IMG/VR virus record: IMGVR_UViG_2698536418_000009
Location: 1 to 10,929 of that record
Direction: 5' to 3' (one strand)
Source of the DNA: a virus
Lineage: Duplodnaviria > Heunggongvirae > Uroviricota > Caudoviricetes
DNA length: 10,929 nt
Shown: positions 3,198-10,175 of the stretch, one piece after another
How positions within the stretch are numbered: the first letter of the stretch is position 1
Layout: each line of letters starts with the position of its first letter
The notes under the pieces: generated by a model
Databases searched by the model: none
Told to the model about the DNA's origin: nothing
What the model saw: the letters and a program-made list of their open reading frames with translations, nothing else
Made by a program: the position numbers and the translations under genes

Positions 3198-3492
3198 GAG
3201 CATGCAGCACTGGTCTACAAAATCTTTTGCGCTCCAGAAGAGAGTAACGCCCGCGAGTGTGCAGCTCCGGGCGTCGTGGCGTCGATTGCTTCTGGTTGTG
3301 GAGAAACTAACGCATGAACAGTTTAACAACACACTACCGTCGCTCGCAACTGATTGCGCTTCCTGTACCGGGTGGAAAAGCGAAGGTGGAGTATTGCTAT
3401 GCAGTGAATGTACCAGGTGACAGGGAAATTGTAACCCACAGCTTTGCAGAGTGGGCTGTGGGTGATTTCAACCGGCAGAAGGAGACAGTCCT

Positions 3493-3705
3493 TTGCGACA
3501 AGTTAACCGCTGGTTCAAAGATCACTACGGAGTGCCCGTCAGAGTCATTCGTTGGGAGCCGGAAACACAACGGGTTATCTACCTCCGTGAAGGCTATGAA
3601 CATGAATGCTTCAGTCCGCTCGAACAGTTTCGTCGTAAATTCAGGGAAATAGAGGTCGGTCATGAGCCTGTTAATGACATCCCAGCCCATTGTGATAAAT
3701 CGTGA
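3493..3705 (+). CDS. Small conserved protein (70 aa, TTG start) directly upstream of and overlapping the O-like gene
   Basis: AAGGAG SD (3479-3484) 8 nt upstream of TTG 3493. All five nucleotide differences between the two copies in this ORF (3573, 3588, 3600, 3606, 3615) are synonymous third-position changes in this frame and would be nonsynonymous in the overlapping frame of ORF 3314..3652. Confidence 0.5.
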
Positions 3706-4021
3706 TCTTGCATGCCGTATTGGTCTGAATGAGGCAATTGTGTTGCAGCAGCTTCATTACTGGCTGAATGAAACGAATTCAGGCACTGAGCATGGCGGAA
3801 TTCGCTGGGTTTATAACACGACAGAACAGTGGCTGGAGCAGTTTCCGTTCTGGTCAGAGTCCACTCTGAAACGCACATTTGCAAGCCTGAAATCACTTGG
3901 GGTTTTGCGTCGCGAGCAACTCAATAAATCGAAGCGTGACATGACCAACTTCTACACGATCAACTATGAAAGTGAGCTTTTAGAAGAGGTCAAAATGCAC
4001 TTCTCCATCGGGTCAAAGTGA
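3662..4021 (+). CDS. O-like replication initiator, N-terminal DNA-binding domain (119 aa), separated from the C-terminal domain by an in-iteron TGA stop and frame change
   Basis: GAGGT SD before ATG 3662. Product ends ...HFSIGSK inside the iteron array. The next ORF (4026..4631) is in a different frame and matches the C-terminal two-thirds of the intact O-like protein at 6552..7493. Confidence 0.55.
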   Translation: MSLLMTSQPIVINRDLACRIGLNEAIVLQQLHYWLNETNSGTEHGGIRWVYNTTEQWLEQFPFWSESTLKRTFASLKSLGVLRREQLNKSKRDMTNFYTINYESELLEEVKMHFSIGSK

Positions 4022-4138
4022 CCTGATGGATGGGCGCAAAATGATACGATCCATTGGTTCAAAACGACACGCTGTCATCGGGTCAAAATGGCCCAATGAT
4101 CTTACAGAGAATACAACAGAGATTACTACAGAGAATAA
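3986..4138 (+). repeat. Candidate ori iterons of copy 1: four GGTCAAA-core repeats (3986-4000, 4008-4023, 4054-4070, 4078-4094) plus three tandem 12-bp A-rich repeats (4103-4138)
   Basis: Direct repeats GAGGTCAAAATGCAC / TCGGGTCAAAGTGACC / TTGGTTCAAAACGACAC / TCGGGTCAAAATGGCCC, then TACAGAGAATAC / AACAGAGATTAC / TACAGAGAATAA. They sit at the N-domain/C-domain junction of the O-like gene, the same place lambda ori sits in gene O. Confidence 0.5.
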
Positions 4139-4631
4139 AACCTCTTCTCGTCCGGACGCTTCGCAACCGGACACGCAAACGGCTGAACAGGAGTTTTTAA
4201 CTCGCCATCCTGATGCGGTTGTATTCAGCCCTAAAAAGCGCCAGTGGGGAACGCAGGATGATTTGACCTGCGCACAGTGGCTCTGGAAAAAAATCATCGC
4301 CCTGTACGAGCAGGCCGCCGAATGTGACGGCGAGGTGGTTCGTCCCAAAGAACCGAACTGGACAGCATGGGCAAACGAAATTCGCCTGATGTGTGTGCAG
4401 GATGGTCGTACTCACAAACAAATCTGCGAGATGTACAGCCGCGTCAGCCGCGATCCGTTCTGGTGCCGTAACGTGCTCAGCCCGTCGAAGTTGCGGGAAA
4501 AATGGGATGAGCTTTCCCTGCGCTTATCGCCGTCCGTCAGCACGCACACAGAAAAACGTGAAGACCCGTACTTCAAAGCCAGTTACGACAACGTGGACTA
4601 CAGCCAGATCCCGGCAGGATTCAGGGGGTGA
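4026..4631 (+). CDS. O-like replication initiator, C-terminal domain ORF (201 aa); possibly the 3' part of a disrupted O gene
   Basis: Residues from TSSRPDASQPDTQTAEQ onward match the C-terminal region of ORF 6552..7493 apart from a few substitutions. Weak SD before ATG 4026. Confidence 0.55.
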   Translation: MDGRKMIRSIGSKRHAVIGSKWPNDLTENTTEITTENKTSSRPDASQPDTQTAEQEFLTRHPDAVVFSPKKRQWGTQDDLTCAQWLWKKIIALYEQAAECDGEVVRPKEPNWTAWANEIRLMCVQDGRTHKQICEMYSRVSRDPFWCRNVLSPSKLREKWDELSLRLSPSVSTHTEKREDPYFKASYDNVDYSQIPAGFRG

Positions 4632-4633
4632 TC

Positions 4634-4726
4634 ATGAGTCTGTTAAATGACGTTCAGAAATTCATTGAAGCCCATCCGGGCTGTACTTCCGGAGACATTG
4701 CGGATGCTTTTTACGTGGGGGCTTAA
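4634..4726 (+). pseudogene. 30-codon remnant of the PerC-like regulator gene (in-frame 396-bp internal deletion relative to 7496..7984)
   Basis: Encodes MSLLNDVQKFIEAHPGCTSGDIADAF + YVGA, i.e. the first 26 and last 4 codons of the 162-aa copy-2 protein. Deletion junction near 4708-4712 in a short T-run. The stop/start overlap TAATG with the methyltransferase gene is retained. Confidence 0.5.
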
Positions 4727-5379
4727 TGAGTAATAAATATTGCCAGGCGCTGGTAGAACTGCGGAACAAACCAGCCCATGAACTGAAGGAAGTGGGCGAT
4801 CAGTGGCGCACGCCGGACAACATTTTCTGGGGAATTAACACCTTGTTTGGTCCGTTTGTTCTGGATCTGTTCACTGACGGTGATAACGCCAAATGTGCCG
4901 CGTATTACACGGCGGAAGACAACGCGCTGGCGCATGACTGGTCAGAACGTCTTGCGGAGCTTAAAGGTGCTGCCTTTGGCAATCCCCCGTACAGCCGCGC
5001 CAGTCAGCATGAGGGGCAATACATCACCGGCATGCGTTACATCATGAAGCATGCCAGTGCCATGCGTGATAAAGGCGGGCGCTATGTTTTCCTGATCAAA
5101 GCTGCCACCGGCGAAGTGTGGTGGCCGGAAGGTGCAGATCATATTGCTTTTATTCGCGGGCGTATTGGTTTTGAACTGCCTGCCTGGTTTATCCCGAAAG
5201 ACGAAAAGCAGGTGCCAACAGGTGCTTTCTTCGCTGGTGCTATTGCTGTTTTCGACAAGACCTGGAAGGGACCGGCAATCAGCTACATCGGGCGCGATGA
5301 ACTTGAGGCATGTGGTGAGGCATTTCTGGCGCAGGTTCGCCAGCAGGCGGAAAAACTGGTCAGGGAGATGGTGGCATGA
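4726..5379 (+). CDS. Phage DNA N6-adenine methyltransferase (orphan, Dam-like), copy 1
   Basis: 217 aa with the catalytic motif GNPPYS (the (D/N/S)PP(Y/F) motif IV of N6-adenine MTases). Start overlaps the upstream stop (TAATG); stop overlaps the rusA start (ATGA). Confidence 0.8.
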   Translation: MSNKYCQALVELRNKPAHELKEVGDQWRTPDNIFWGINTLFGPFVLDLFTDGDNAKCAAYYTAEDNALAHDWSERLAELKGAAFGNPPYSRASQHEGQYITGMRYIMKHASAMRDKGGRYVFLIKAATGEVWWPEGADHIAFIRGRIGFELPAWFIPKDEKQVPTGAFFAGAIAVFDKTWKGPAISYIGRDELEACGEAFLAQVRQQAEKLVREMVA

Positions 5380-5765
5380 AGCTAATACTGCCTTTTCCGC
5401 CCAGCGTGAACACGTACTGGCGACACCCCAACAAAGGGGCATTTGCTGGTAAGAGCCTGATAAGCGAGGCGGGGCGAAAATTTCAGAGCGCGGCGTGTGC
5501 CGCCATCATTGAGCAGTTACGTCGTCTGCCGAAACCAACGTCGGCACCTGCTTCAGTGGAGATCGTGTTGTTTCCTCCGGATAACAGGATCCGCGATCTG
5601 GACAACTATAACAAGGCGCTGTTTGACGCCCTGACCCACGCGGGTGTGTGGGAAGACGACAGTCAGGTGAAAAGAATGCTGGTGGAGTGGGGACCGGTTA
5701 TCCCGAAAGGGAAGGTCGAGATCACTATCAGTAAGTACGAGAAAACGGCGGGTGCAGCCGCCTGA
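5376..5765 (+). CDS. rusA: RusA-family Holliday junction resolvase, copy 1
   Basis: 129 aa; MKLILPFPPSVNTYW... and RDLDNYNKALFDALTHAGVWEDDSQV follow the RusA layout. Typical nin-region position. Confidence 0.85.
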   Translation: MKLILPFPPSVNTYWRHPNKGAFAGKSLISEAGRKFQSAACAAIIEQLRRLPKPTSAPASVEIVLFPPDNRIRDLDNYNKALFDALTHAGVWEDDSQVKRMLVEWGPVIPKGKVEITISKYEKTAGAAA

Positions 5766-5784
5766 TCAAGAGGAGAAACGAAGT

Positions 5785-6207
5785 ATGAATAATCTGATGG
5801 TCATTGATGGTATTGAAGTTCGTCGTGATGTTTATGGGCGTTACAGCCTGAACGATCTACATCACGCAGCAGTAGCATCTGGTGCAAATGCCAGAACCAA
5901 GGAGCCAGGAAAGTTTCTTTCCAGCCAACAAACTGTTGAACTTGTTCATGAATTGACCAACACCCAGAATTTGGGTGTTGACCCGGTGAGTGTGATTCAT
6001 GGGGGAAATGAACGGGGAACGTATGTCTGCAAGGAACTGGTGTATGCCTATGCAATGTGGATCAGCCCGTCATTCCATCTGAAGGTGATCCGTACTTTCG
6101 ATATGGTAACCAGCGCACCGGAAAAATTATCCGGACAGGCTGCTGACAAGATGCAGGCTGGCGTGATCCTGCTGGACTTTATGCGATGTGGAGAAACTAA
6201 CGCATGA
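5785..6207 (+). CDS. KilA-N domain protein, copy 1, C-terminally truncated at the duplication junction (140 aa)
   Basis: AGGAG SD 9 nt before ATG 5785. Matches the first 133 residues of ORF 9366..10175, then diverges at 6186 into 7 novel codons (CGETNA plus stop) supplied by the start of unit 2. Confidence 0.65.
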
Positions 6208-6382
6208 ACAGTTTAACAACACACTACCGTCGCTCGCAACTGATTGCGCTTCCTGTACCGGGTGGAAAAGCGAAGGTGGAGTATTGCTATGCAGTAAATG
6301 TACCAGGTGACAGGGAAATTGTAACCCACAGCTTTGCAGAGTGGGCTGTGGGTGATTTCAACCGGCAGAAGGAGACAGTCCT

Positions 6383-6562
6383 TTGCGACAAGTTAACCGC
6401 TGGTTCAAAGATCACTACGGAGTGCCCGTCAGAGTCATTCGTTGGGAGCCGGAAACACAACGTGTTATCTACCTCCGCGAAGGCTATGAGCATGAGTGCT
6501 TCAGCCCGCTCGAACAGTTTCGTCGTAAATTCAGGGAAATAGAGGTCGGTCATGAGCACTAA
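6383..6562 (+). CDS. Small conserved protein, copy 2 (59 aa, TTG start), overlapping the start of the intact O-like gene
   Basis: Same SD and TTG as at 3493; coding sequence differs from copy 1 only by synonymous changes up to the repeat boundary. Below the ORF-track length cutoff. Confidence 0.45.
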
Positions 6563-7493
6563 ATTAACCGGCTATGTATGGGATGGTTGCGCTGCATCAG
6601 GCATGAAATTATCCAGCGTGGCAATTATGGCCCGCCTGGCTGATTTCAGTAATGACGAAGGTGTGTGCTGGCCATCAATTGAAACCATTGCCCGCCAGAT
6701 TGGCGCGGGGATGAGTACCGTCAGAACGGCTATCGCACGGCTGGAAGCAGAAGGCTGGTTAACGCGTAGGGCGCGTCGCCAGGGTAACCGCAATGCGTCG
6801 AATGTTTATCAGCTTAACGTTGCGAAGCTTCAGGCAGCGGCATTTTCTCAACTGTCAGATTCTGACCCGTCAAAATCTGACGCATCAAAATCTGACCCGT
6901 CAAAATTTGATGCGTCGAAATCTGGCAAAAAAGCGGGTTTTCACCCGTCAGAATCTGGTGGGGATCCGTCAGTAAAATCAAAACATGATCCGTCAGATAA
7001 AAAAACTTCTCGTCCGGACGCTTCGCAACCGGACACGCAGACGGCTGAACAGGATTTTTTAACTCGCCATCCTGATGCGGTTGTATTCAGCCCTAAAAAG
7101 CGCCAGTGGGGGACGCAGGATGATTTGACCTGCGCACAGTGGCTCTGGAAAAAAATCATCGCCCTGTACGAGCATGCCGCCGAATGTGACGGCGAGGTGG
7201 TTCGTCCCAAAGAACCGAACTGGACAGCCTGGGCAAACGAAATTCGCCTGATGTGTGTGCAGGATGGTCGTACTCATAAACAAATCTGCGAGATGTACAG
7301 CCGCGTCAGTCGCGATCCGTTCTGGTGCCGTAACGTGCTCAGCCCGTCGAAGCTGCGGGAAAAATGGGATGAGCTTTCCCTGCGCTTATCGCCGTCCGTC
7401 AGCACGTACACCGAAAAACGCGAAGACCCGTACTTCAAAGCCAGTTACGACAACGTGGACTACAGCCAGATCCCGGCAGGATTCAGGGGGTGA
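6552..7493 (+). CDS. O-like replication initiator (replisome organizer), intact, 313 aa: N-terminal winged-helix DNA-binding domain, iteron-encoded linker, conserved C-terminal domain
   Basis: GAGGT SD 5 nt before ATG 6552. The N-terminal 90 aa look like a helix-turn-helix replication-initiator fold. The linker is encoded by tandem 15-bp repeats (SDPSK/SDASK). C-terminal domain shared with ORF 4026..4631. Confidence 0.75.
   Translation: MSTKLTGYVWDGCAASGMKLSSVAIMARLADFSNDEGVCWPSIETIARQIGAGMSTVRTAIARLEAEGWLTRRARRQGNRNASNVYQLNVAKLQAAAFSQLSDSDPSKSDASKSDPSKFDASKSGKKAGFHPSESGGDPSVKSKHDPSDKKTSRPDASQPDTQTAEQDFLTRHPDAVVFSPKKRQWGTQDDLTCAQWLWKKIIALYEHAAECDGEVVRPKEPNWTAWANEIRLMCVQDGRTHKQICEMYSRVSRDPFWCRNVLSPSKLREKWDELSLRLSPSVSTYTEKREDPYFKASYDNVDYSQIPAGFRG
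6861..7006 (+). repeat. Candidate ori iterons of copy 2: four tandem 15-bp repeats (consensus about CCGTCAAAATCTGAC, 6866-6925), an A-rich tract, and three degenerate CCGTCAG-containing repeats
   Basis: CCGTCAAAATCTGAC / GCATCAAAATCTGAC / CCGTCAAAATTTGAT / GCGTCGAAATCTGGC, then GGCAAAAAAGCGGG, then CCCGTCAGAATCTGG, TCCGTCAGTAAAATC, TCCGTCAGATAAAAAAAC. Located inside the O-like gene linker. Confidence 0.55.
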
Positions 7494-7495
7494 TC

Positions 7496-7984
7496 ATGAG
7501 TCTTTTGAATGACGTTCAGAAATTCATTGAAGCCCATCCGGGGTGTACTTCCGGAGACATTGCGGATGCTTTTGCAGGTTACTCACGACAGCGCGTTCTG
7601 CAGTCAGCAAGCAAGTTACGTCAGAGTGGGCGTGTGGCTCACCGTTGTGAAGGGGATACACGCAGACATTTCCCGCGGCTGACTGAGATACCGCAGGAGC
7701 CGGAACCGCAACCAGTTCGTGAATCCAGACCTGTGCGCAATTTCTATGTCGGCACTAACGATCCCCGGGTGATTTTGTGCCTGACCCGCCAGGCGGAAGA
7801 ACTGGAGTCCAGGGGCTTATACCGTCGTGCTGCAACGGTGTGGATGGCGGCATTCCGTGAAAGCCACTCCCAGCAAGAGCGAAACAATTTTCTGGCGCGT
7901 CGTGAGCGGTGTTTACGGAAAAGCAGCAAGCGCGCTGCATCGGGTGAAGAGTGGTATCTGTCAGGGAATTACGTGGGGGCTTAA
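7496..7984 (+). CDS. PerC-like transcriptional regulator with N-terminal HTH-like region (162 aa)
   Basis: C-terminal motif AEELESRGLYRRAATVWMAAF resembles the PerC/Pch family signature as I remember it. AGGGGG SD before ATG 7496. Stop overlaps the MTase start (TAATG). Confidence 0.5.
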   Translation: MSLLNDVQKFIEAHPGCTSGDIADAFAGYSRQRVLQSASKLRQSGRVAHRCEGDTRRHFPRLTEIPQEPEPQPVRESRPVRNFYVGTNDPRVILCLTRQAEELESRGLYRRAATVWMAAFRESHSQQERNNFLARRERCLRKSSKRAASGEEWYLSGNYVGA

Positions 7985-8637
7985 TGAGTAATAAATATTG
8001 CCAGGCGCTGGTGGAGCTGCGGAACAAACCAGCCCATGAACTGAAGGAAGTGGGCGATCAGTGGCGCACGCCGGACAACATTTTCTGGGGAATTAACACC
8101 CTGTTTGGCCCGTTTGTTCTGGATCTGTTTACTGATGGTGATAACGCCAAATGCGCCGCGTATTACACTGCGGAAGACAACGCGCTGGCGCATGACTGGT
8201 CAGAACGTCTTGCGGAGCTTAAAGGTGCTGCCTTTGGTAATCCCCCGTACAGCCGCGCCAGTCAGCATGAGGGGCAATACATCACCGGCATGCGTTACAT
8301 CATGAAGCATGCCAGTGCCATGCGTGATAAAGGCGGGCGCTATGTTTTCCTGATCAAAGCTGCCACCAGCGAAGTTTGGTGGCCGGAAGATGCAGACCAT
8401 ATTGCTTTTATTCGCGGGCGTATTGGTTTTGAACTGCCAGCCTGGTTTATCCCGAAGGACGAGAAGCAGGTGCCGACAGGCGCTTTCTTCGCTGGTGCTA
8501 TTGCTGTTTTCGACAAGACCCGGAAGGGACCGGCAATCAGCTACATCGGGCGCGATGAACTTGAGGCATGTGGTGAGGCCTTTCTGGCGCAGGTTCGCCA
8601 GCAGGCGGAAAAACTGGTCAGGGAGATGGCGGCATGA
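7984..8637 (+). CDS. Phage DNA N6-adenine methyltransferase (orphan, Dam-like), copy 2
   Basis: 217 aa with GNPPYS motif. Differs from copy 1 by about 20 nt substitutions counted by eye, giving 4 amino-acid changes. The track start at 7951 is an upstream GTG; the ATG at 7984 matches copy 1. Confidence 0.8.
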   Translation: MSNKYCQALVELRNKPAHELKEVGDQWRTPDNIFWGINTLFGPFVLDLFTDGDNAKCAAYYTAEDNALAHDWSERLAELKGAAFGNPPYSRASQHEGQYITGMRYIMKHASAMRDKGGRYVFLIKAATSEVWWPEDADHIAFIRGRIGFELPAWFIPKDEKQVPTGAFFAGAIAVFDKTRKGPAISYIGRDELEACGEAFLAQVRQQAEKLVREMAA

Positions 8638-8960
8638 CGACGTTAACTCAATGCCAGCAGCAGGTGCTGGATATGCTGATTTCTTACCAGCAAGAACGTG
8701 GCTTTCCGCCAACCAATCAGGAGGTGGCAACCATGCTGGGATACCGTTCGGTGAATGCAGCGGTGGAGCATCTTCGCGCACTGGAGAAAAAAGGCGTCAT
8801 CACGATAAAGCGTGGCGTGGCCCGGGGGATAACTCTTCATACCGCGGTGAAGGACGACGACAGCGAGGCGGTCGGGATTATCCGCGCACTGCTTGCCGGT
8901 GAGGAAAACGCCAGGCTGCGTGCAGCCCACTGGTTACATGAGAGGGGCCTGAAAGTATGA
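8634..8960 (+). CDS. LexA N-terminal DNA-binding-domain protein lacking the S24 peptidase domain (108 aa)
   Basis: TQCQQQVLDMLISYQQERGFPPTNQEVATMLGYRSVNAAVEHLRALEKKGVITIKRGVARGITL aligns with the E. coli LexA winged-helix DNA-binding domain (...[62 protein letters not shown]). No peptidase domain follows. ATGA overlaps at both ends. Confidence 0.7.
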   Translation: MTTLTQCQQQVLDMLISYQQERGFPPTNQEVATMLGYRSVNAAVEHLRALEKKGVITIKRGVARGITLHTAVKDDDSEAVGIIRALLAGEENARLRAAHWLHERGLKV

Positions 8961-9346
8961 AGCTGATCTTGCCTTTCCCGCCCAGCGTGAACACGTACTG
9001 GCGACACCCCAACAAAGGGGCGTTTGCTGGTAAGAGTCTGATAAGCGCAGCGGGGCGCAAATTCCAGAGCGCGGCGTGCGCAGCAATAGTTGAGCAGTTA
9101 CGTCGTCTGCCGAAACCAACGTCGGCACCTGCTTCAGTGGAGATCGTGTTGTTTCCTCCGGATAACCGGATCCGCGATCTGGACAACTATAACAAGGCGC
9201 TGTTTGACGCCCTGACCCATGCGGGTGTGTGGGAAGACGACAGTCAGGTGAAAAGAATGCTGGTGGAGTGGGGACCGGTTATCCCGAAAGGGAAGGTCGA
9301 GATCACTATCAGTAAGTACGAGAAAACGGCGGGTGCAGCCGCCTGA
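8957..9346 (+). CDS. rusA: RusA-family Holliday junction resolvase, copy 2
   Basis: 129 aa, 2 amino-acid differences from copy 1. Start overlaps the stop of the upstream LexA-DBD gene. Confidence 0.85.
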   Translation: MKLILPFPPSVNTYWRHPNKGAFAGKSLISAAGRKFQSAACAAIVEQLRRLPKPTSAPASVEIVLFPPDNRIRDLDNYNKALFDALTHAGVWEDDSQVKRMLVEWGPVIPKGKVEITISKYEKTAGAAA

Positions 9347-9365
9347 TCAAGAGGAGAAACGAAGT

Positions 9366-10175
9366 ATGAATAATCTGATGGTCATTGATGGTATTGAAGT
9401 TCGTCGTGATGTTTATGGGCGTTACAGCCTGAACGATCTACATCACGCAGCAGTAGCATCTGGTGCAAATGCCAGAACCAAGGAGCCAGGAAAGTTTCTT
9501 TCCAGCCAACAAACTGTTGAACTTGTTCATGAATTGACCAACACCCAGAATTTGGGTGTTGACCCGGTGAGTGTGATTCATGGGGGAAATGAACGGGGAA
9601 CGTATGTCTGCAAGGAACTGGTGTATGCCTATGCAATGTGGATCAGCCCGTCATTCCATCTGAAGGTGATCCGTACTTTCGACATGGTAACCAGCACACC
9701 GGAAAAATTATCCGGACAGGCTGCTGACAAGATGCAGGCTGGTGTGATTCTGCTGGACTTTATGCGTCGGGAATTAAACCTGTCTAACTCATCTGTGCTT
9801 GGTGCCTGTCAGAAACTCCAGGAGGCTGTTGGCTTACCGAATCTGGCACCGCGCTATGCCATTGATGCTCCTGCTGATGCACACGATGGCTCAAGTCGCC
9901 CGACACTGTCACTGAGTGCACTGCTGAAACAGTATGGTATCCGCCTGACGGCTAATCAGGCATATCACCAGATGGCAAAGCTGGGGATCGTTGAACAACG
10001 TGAACGATACAGCCGCACTGCGATTAACAACATCAAAAAATTCTGGTCGCTGACGGCGAAAGGCTGCATGTTCGGCAAGAACATCACCAGTCCCGCAAAT
10101 CCGCGCGAGACGCAGCCGCATTTCTTCGAATCCCGATTCCCTGAGCTGTTAAAGCTGCTCGATACCGTTCATTGA
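9366..10175 (+). CDS. KilA-N domain protein with C-terminal antirepressor-like extension (269 aa), full-length copy
   Basis: AGGAG SD 9 nt before ATG 9366. The N-terminal 110 aa have the size and position of a KilA-N domain (recalled, not aligned). The C-terminal 135 aa are unique to this copy. Confidence 0.7.
   Translation: MNNLMVIDGIEVRRDVYGRYSLNDLHHAAVASGANARTKEPGKFLSSQQTVELVHELTNTQNLGVDPVSVIHGGNERGTYVCKELVYAYAMWISPSFHLKVIRTFDMVTSTPEKLSGQAADKMQAGVILLDFMRRELNLSNSSVLGACQKLQEAVGLPNLAPRYAIDAPADAHDGSSRPTLSLSALLKQYGIRLTANQAYHQMAKLGIVEQRERYSRTAINNIKKFWSLTAKGCMFGKNITSPANPRETQPHFFESRFPELLKLLDTVH

Follow-up and report, generated by a model that had tools for sequence, protein, structure and literature searches.

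Structure of the locus and the deletion junction

The window, by which we mean the whole 10,929-nt stretch of DNA analyzed here (IMG/VR record IMGVR_UViG_2698536418_000009), is made up of two diverged copies (∼97% identical) of the early-right segment of a lambdoid prophage, located at positions 3297–6185 (copy 1) and 6187–9766 (copy 2). In copy 1, a replication (O-like) gene (3662–4631), which is split into ORFs of 119 and 201 aa, is followed by a yfdN-like, PerC-family remnant ORF of 30 codons (4634–4726), by the gene for a phage N-6-adenine methyltransferase (MTase) of the Dam family (4726–5379; 217 aa; Pfam PF05869, E = 5.3e-44), and by the RusA resolvase gene (5376–5765; Pfam PF05866), all of which are on the plus strand. 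Copy 2 contains a full-length yfdN-like gene of the PerC family, also on the plus strand (7496–7984), which encodes 162 aa from its ATG or 164 aa from a GTG at 7490. According to the Pfam matches, this gene is followed by those for an MTase, a LexA-like regulator, RusA, and a KilA-N protein. The LexA-like gene (8634–8960), located between the MTase gene and rusA, encodes a 108-aa protein with a DNA-binding domain only (PF01726, E = 2.6e-19), and it is missing from copy 1.

The two copies meet at position 6186, where the middle of a KilA-N gene leads directly into the end of a ymfL-like gene. One orphan base is present at this join, which shows no homology. This copy-1/copy-2 join was absent from 5,426 complete E. 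coli genomes and from all the loci that were fetched, and the IMG/VR contig L055 (99.87% identity with copy 1) continues normally past the join point. Either two prophages have undergone a genuine illegitimate rearrangement here, or the tandem join is a chimera of the assembly.

In an alignment of positions 4560–4800 of copy 1 with 7422–8058 of copy 2, a single unbroken gap of 396 columns separated near-identical flanks. The remnant ORF is the 162-codon gene minus one clean 396-nt block (7574–7969, plus strand), and excising this block from copy 2 in silico regenerated the ORF of copy 1. The remnant holds codons 1–26 and 159–162 of the long form plus the stop codon; 132 codons (27–158) are gone, in frame, and the 30-aa translation reads MSLLNDVQKFIEAHPGCTSGDIADAF followed by YVGA and the stop. 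The remnant's TAA (4724–4726) and the ATG of the MTase gene (4726–4728) have the last A of the TAA in common, i.e., the stop/start overlap (TAATG) has been kept. The original prediction, which had described an in-frame deletion in a PerC-like gene homologous to 7496–7984, with the overlap with the MTase start retained, was borne out on all of these points.

The junction lies within a run of five T residues (TTTTT, 4708–4712, plus strand), and the alignment places the join between 4710 and 4711 or between 4711 and 4712, i.e., with 1 nt of microhomology. The contexts of the two breaks read GCTTTT/G on the left and AAT/TACG on the right, and because only one T is common to both, we interpret the event as an illegitimate join and not as slippage on a repeat. 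The short T-run named in the original prediction is correct as the location of the junction, but the event cannot be explained by it as a repeat. We found no repeat or structure linking the two endpoints. A repeat-mediated deletion was also considered and rejected, because the microhomology amounts to 1 nt and a nearby CAGG..TTAC similarity would yield another junction. A promoter and terminator scan of 4300–5000 detected no new site at the junction; there was no terminator-like site in this region, which indicates that the new T-run makes no terminator. The junction is evidently neither a peculiarity of this contig nor an error, given that the same 50-mer occurs in 116 of the 5,426 complete E. 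coli genomes.

The parent gene and its remnant

The long form, which is named yfdN or PerC family transcriptional regulator in RefSeq, matched the PerC family of Pfam (PF06069) at residues 98–149 (E = 2.2e-9; 37.9 bits, with a cut-off of 22.6). In an AlphaFold2 model based on 27 homologues (mean pLDDT 78), the N-terminal part forms a predicted winged helix, with helices at residues 3–13, 19–25, and 31–44 and strands at 47–52 and 55–60 (pLDDT 81–91), followed by a disordered linker (63–82) and three C-terminal helices at 90–145. Consistent with this model, Foldseek aligned the first ∼60 residues to winged helices of the ArsR/SmtB, MarR, and BlaI types at about 2–3 Å, with modest E-values. The deleted block encodes the recognition helix and wing of the predicted winged-helix domain, the linker, and the entire PerC domain. 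The remnant encodes helices 1 and 2 of the modeled winged helix and the four C-terminal residues. The mini-ORF had no match in Pfam and cannot be counted as a member of the PerC family at the gathering score of PF06069, residues 98–149 all being within the deleted block.

Because the recognition helix, wing, linker, and PerC domain have all been removed, the remnant cannot be a regulator of the PerC or winged-helix kind, and on the basis of the model its regulator function is lost. The AlphaFold2 model and the Foldseek alignments indicated the loss of sequence essential to fold and function, and the PGAP annotation of the same allele carries a pseudo flag. Both ends of the remnant are collinear with yfdN, and the remnant is placed, like yfdN, between the replication gene and the Dam-family MTase gene. 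In other genomes, PGAP treats the allele as a partial pseudogene, and in each of the five RefSeq loci fetched, the feature at the junction is described as a hypothetical protein that is incomplete, partial in the middle of a contig, and missing its C-terminus. The remnant is a yfdN pseudogene, and it has already been flagged as such by the RefSeq annotation.

The closest known counterpart is yfdN of E. coli K-12, in the CPS-53/KpLE1 prophage. The copy-2 gene is ∼97% identical to it in DNA and occupies the same place, between the replication gene and yfdM (MTase). The remnant has the first 26 and last 4 codons in common with K-12 yfdN but lacks codons 27–158, and it is a pseudogene and not a variant regulator. 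It has been reported that yfdN is the only PerC homologue of K-12 (PMC5931665); our literature search on yfdN otherwise yielded incidental mentions only. Similarly to PerC of EPEC and PchA–E of EHEC, the long form has a PerC domain (PF06069), and the pch genes are prophage-encoded (PMC6265319), as is the long form. The yfdN type differs from PerC and Pch in its extra N-terminal domain, the predicted winged helix, whereas the remnant differs in having no PerC domain.

Distribution and origin of the short form

Full-length relatives of ∼160 aa, with 62–85% identity and named PerC family transcriptional regulator, were found in Salmonella, Hafnia, and Citrobacter, and the long form was present in ∼2,500 of the 5,426 complete E. 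coli genomes, in which it is annotated as yfdN. The yfdN copies in RefSeq were 96.7–99.8% identical to the copy-2 gene, with the MTase gene adjoining. The occurrence of divergent full-length relatives in other genera and of the long form in so many E. coli genomes leads us to conclude, from this sequence comparison, that the short form is a deletion derivative of an ancestral long form.

The short form was traced with a 50-mer centered on the junction, each side of which is too short to match the long form. It was present in the above-mentioned 116 E. coli genomes and was identical in 112 of them. Sixty-one IMG/VR viral contigs contained a 22-mer that spans the junction, and no exact match to this 22-mer was found among the GTDB species representatives. 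The junction also occurs in the published genome of phage cdtI (AB285204.1), an inducible lambdoid prophage according to the title of the paper describing it. The survey of related prophages that the original prediction had called for recovered the same junction, inherited identically across more than 170 public sequences. Many genomes carry the long and short forms together, as the window does. In the phage cdtI record, the dam CDS (3995–4693) was deposited with a start 15 codons 5′ of the conserved ATG, inside the yfdN remnant, and the RefSeq copy of this genome labels the dam gene “phosphoadenosine phosphosulfate reductase.” Both the start and the product label look like annotation slips.

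The mini-ORF was intact in all 67 carriers examined, among which there were eight nucleotide haplotypes and three peptide variants. Its amino acid replacements, D6E and A30D, mirror neutral polymorphism of the long form. The left-flank variants of the short forms were those that segregate in the long forms. On the right, a variant on the MTase side (GGTAGAAC) was found in 51 short forms (of about 66 carriers) and in no long form, and a second private right-flank haplotype was found in nine short forms and again in no long form. A valley of diversity would be expected around the junction of the short forms, but none was detected, the flank diversity being equal to that of the long forms even at 25–50 nt. 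The argument for a single origin therefore rests on the private right-flank SNPs, and a single origin needs either many nearby recombination events or great age. The carriers have at least four N-terminal modules of the replication gene, each with and without the LexA-like gene, which was present in roughly half of the short-form carriers and absent from the other half; they also differ in their immunity and Q regions. Given the private SNPs on the MTase side and the 1-nt microhomology, the sequence data favor one old event, after which the allele remained tied to the 5′ end of the MTase gene while recombining on its left side.

Two other histories of the short form were weighed against this one. 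Recurrent deletion at a hotspot, on different yfdN haplotypes, would account for the eight mini-ORF haplotypes, for the left-flank haplotypes shared with the long forms, and for a flank diversity as high as theirs. We consider it very unlikely, because nothing beyond the single T of microhomology joins the endpoints, because SNPs that are private to the short form argue for descent from one allele, and because no near-miss junction was present among 111 sampled loci. The reverse polarity, in which an insertion of 396 nt turned an ancestral short form into the long one, is what a bare comparison of the two copies would permit, and nothing more speaks for it. The folded winged helix is complete only with the 396 nt, which also contain the entire PerC domain, divergent full-length homologues exist in other genera, and the junction is in none of the GTDB species representatives; we regard this polarity as practically dismissed.

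Reading frame and translation of the methyltransferase gene

An SD-like element (AGGGGGUGA, 4623–4631, plus strand) precedes the remnant ORF, with an anti-SD duplex of −10.7 kcal/mol, and it overlaps the stop codon of the upstream replication gene (TGA, 4629–4631). The MTase gene has an SD-like element of its own, GUGGGGG (4715–4721, plus strand), inside the last four codons of the remnant; its duplex with the anti-SD is −8.4 kcal/mol, and the 5th percentile of the window background is −7.4. The remnant and the MTase gene have the geometry of a coupled pair, i.e., their stop and start overlap on the same strand, and the upstream ORF contains the MTase SD. Overlaps of the UGAUG and UAAUG types are found in translationally coupled genes such as trpB–trpA and the lambdoid nin-region genes. 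In the present case, the overlaps are TAATG between the remnant and the MTase gene and ATGA between the MTase gene and rusA, and the SDs lie inside the upstream coding sequence. The difference from such coupled genes is that the MTase start here is free of any occluding RNA structure of unusual stability: the folds of 141 nt around this start were not more stable than those of shuffled sequences in either form (z = +0.38 and +0.78, i.e., about +0.4 and +0.8). A structured coupling element at the MTase start was rejected on this basis. Codons 10–13 of the mini-ORF (UCAUUGAAGCCC, 4660–4672) can pair with the SD and start of the MTase gene (GGGGCUUAAUGA, 4717–4730), and this pairing was predicted for the short form in the MFE fold as well as in the centroid fold. 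The overall fold was no better than shuffles, and no importance was attached to the pairing. TAATG-type overlaps are usual in tightly packed phage operons, and in this respect the remnant is ordinary.

The MTase gene was intact in 57 of the 58 complete short-form carriers and in 50 of the 52 long-form carriers, with pN/pS values of 0.052 and 0.056, respectively; as recombination has spread most of its polymorphisms across both sets of carriers, these sets are not independent of each other. This maintenance fits preserved expression signals but does not single out the frame. The MTase gene is missing downstream of yfdN in approximately one fifth of the E. coli genomes sampled and in 25 of 84 IMG/VR loci of the long form; there, the LexA-like gene (start ATGACGACG) comes immediately after yfdN. 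The boundary between yfdN and the MTase gene (7984–7987) is a mosaic joint.

To assess the importance of the frame, we simulated deletions of 394–398 nt with the same right endpoint. One shifted register produced an ORF of 32–33 codons that terminated at a TAA located 5 nt beyond the ATG of the MTase gene, and the other produced an in-frame fusion to the MTase. Because the right endpoint of the deletion is 15 nt before the stop codon, the frame hardly matters: ribosomes would reach the MTase start in all three registers, with no long untranslated gap to cause polarity. Both outcomes exist in nature. The IMG/VR frameshift allele L124 ends in ...ITWGLNE, at the same TAA just past the MTase ATG, and L134 is a 380-aa yfdN–MTase fusion. 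The second half of yfdN has, in L124, a +1 frame that stays open over ∼57 codons until this TAA, which may be due to chance.

These two alleles belong to a sample of 120 IMG/VR contigs, chosen arbitrarily by a yfdN start anchor, in which 97 contigs had the full-length gene, nine were cut by contig ends, and, judging from the locus numbering, about nine had the short form. The remainder comprised three small in-frame variants (160, 161, and 155 aa), the frameshift (L124), and the fusion (L134). The length alleles in this small, unbiased sample were four in frame and two out of frame, i.e., the in-frame share was somewhat above 1/3 (binomial p about 0.10). The three small in-frame variants (1–7 codons) are probably functional proteins, and such variants are in any case to be expected where a protein is under selection. 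A protein collection contained at least eight in-frame internal deletions of yfdN (11–43 residues) together with many frameshifted, truncated, or fused forms, including P0070, which is cut after residue 129 and has 498 member sequences, and clusters P0095 and P0100, which are cut after about residue 107; these allele counts are soft owing to assembly errors and ascertainment. Frame-disrupting decay is also tolerated in copy 1 itself, as shown 0.6 kb upstream of the remnant by the O-like gene. An out-of-frame 23-nt deletion between AGGTCAAA direct repeats, near position 3986, splits this gene relative to that of E. coli E2863, and the IMG/VR contig L055 has the same 23-nt-deleted replication gene.

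We interpret the mini-ORF as the dead remnant of a yfdN-type regulator gene of a prophage, left by a single old deletion that was spread by recombination and in which the frame is incidental, and we put the probability of this reading at roughly 80%. An illegitimate deletion with 1 nt of shared sequence took 396 nt (codons 27–158) from a 162-codon gene. It would have occurred once only and kept its linkage to the 5′ part of the neighboring MTase gene, and recombination among lambdoid prophages would then have moved the allele into many backgrounds, inducible phage cdtI included. With both ends of the gene surviving, the remnant retains the strong SD, the ATG, the MTase SD, and the TAATG overlap. 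Based on the strength of the SD and this geometry, translation of the remnant as a short upstream ORF probably continues and would bring ribosomes to the MTase start, and the MTase may also initiate on its own. The frame would be neutral, as in every register the remnant would terminate at the MTase start or be fused to the MTase. The MTase SD element, rather than the frame, is the constraint that any surviving deletion had to meet, and the intact frame is most likely incidental.

The original prediction went further in supposing that the allele survived by being in frame, ribosomes from the remnant ending at TAATG and thereby keeping MTase/rusA translation coupled. The retained stop/start overlap and both SDs, the tight packing of the operon genes with overlapping stops and starts, the purifying selection on the MTase in the carriers, and the mini-ORF being intact in 67 of 67 carriers are in line with this proposal. 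The last of these counts is compatible with weak selection, but 93 nt at ∼2% diversity give almost no power. Against the proposal, a single event has a prior of 1/3 of being in frame, the other registers also reach the MTase start and both exist naturally, an SD of its own serves the MTase gene, yfdN alleles with frameshifts or truncations persist in large numbers (P0070, P0095, and P0100), and copy 1 also has an out-of-frame deletion in its O-like gene. The claim of selection was not sustained, and we consider it quite unlikely to be true. A related proposal, which we judge unlikely, is that the remnant is a retained leader ORF that must be translated for the MTase start to be opened or loaded, and that the module of deleted yfdN and MTase gene spread by expressing the MTase without a PerC-type regulator. 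The 30-residue product might instead be a functional small protein, e.g., one that interferes with the full-length YfdN or Pch regulators of co-resident prophages. The SD is strong (−10.7 kcal/mol), the ORF is intact in all carriers, and many genomes carry both forms; but only two helices of the winged-helix fold remain, D6E and A30D mirror neutral long-form polymorphism, and there is no family match in Pfam. We consider such a function highly improbable.

The reading of the mini-ORF as a dead remnant makes an apparently purposeful in-frame scar an ordinary, widely inherited yfdN pseudogene allele, which will not surprise specialists. The scar resembles the deletions of the Keio collection, for which Baba et al. 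in 2006 reportedly designed non-polar in-frame deletions that keep the start codon and the last few codons. In both cases, a short in-frame ORF is left, the downstream RBS and the stop/start geometry are kept, and downstream expression is expected to be undisturbed. However, the Keio-type deletions are engineered, whereas the remnant is a natural accident, and the evidence does not show that its frame was selected. The leader-ORF proposal, if true, would make the remnant a natural analogue of these engineered non-polar deletions and a modest point on the operon architecture of phage early regions. In practice, the allele merits an annotation note and can be used as a marker for recombination among CPS-53/cdtI-like lambdoid prophages, on the basis that the deletion is tied to a particular 5′ haplotype of the MTase gene and shuffled against everything else.

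Two further features of the replication genes were observed. The N-terminal halves of the copy-1 and copy-2 genes (3668–4134 and 6558–6996) are unrelated in DNA and the C-terminal halves are 97% identical, which constitutes an intragenic mosaic joint. In addition, GGTCAAA(A/G)TG motifs occur within the replication gene, three in the window (3988–4092) and four in E2863 (5279–5406 of locus L001). The first motifs are 23 nt apart, and the 23-nt deletion takes out exactly one unit. From their sequence and arrangement, these motifs look like origin iterons inside an O-type gene.
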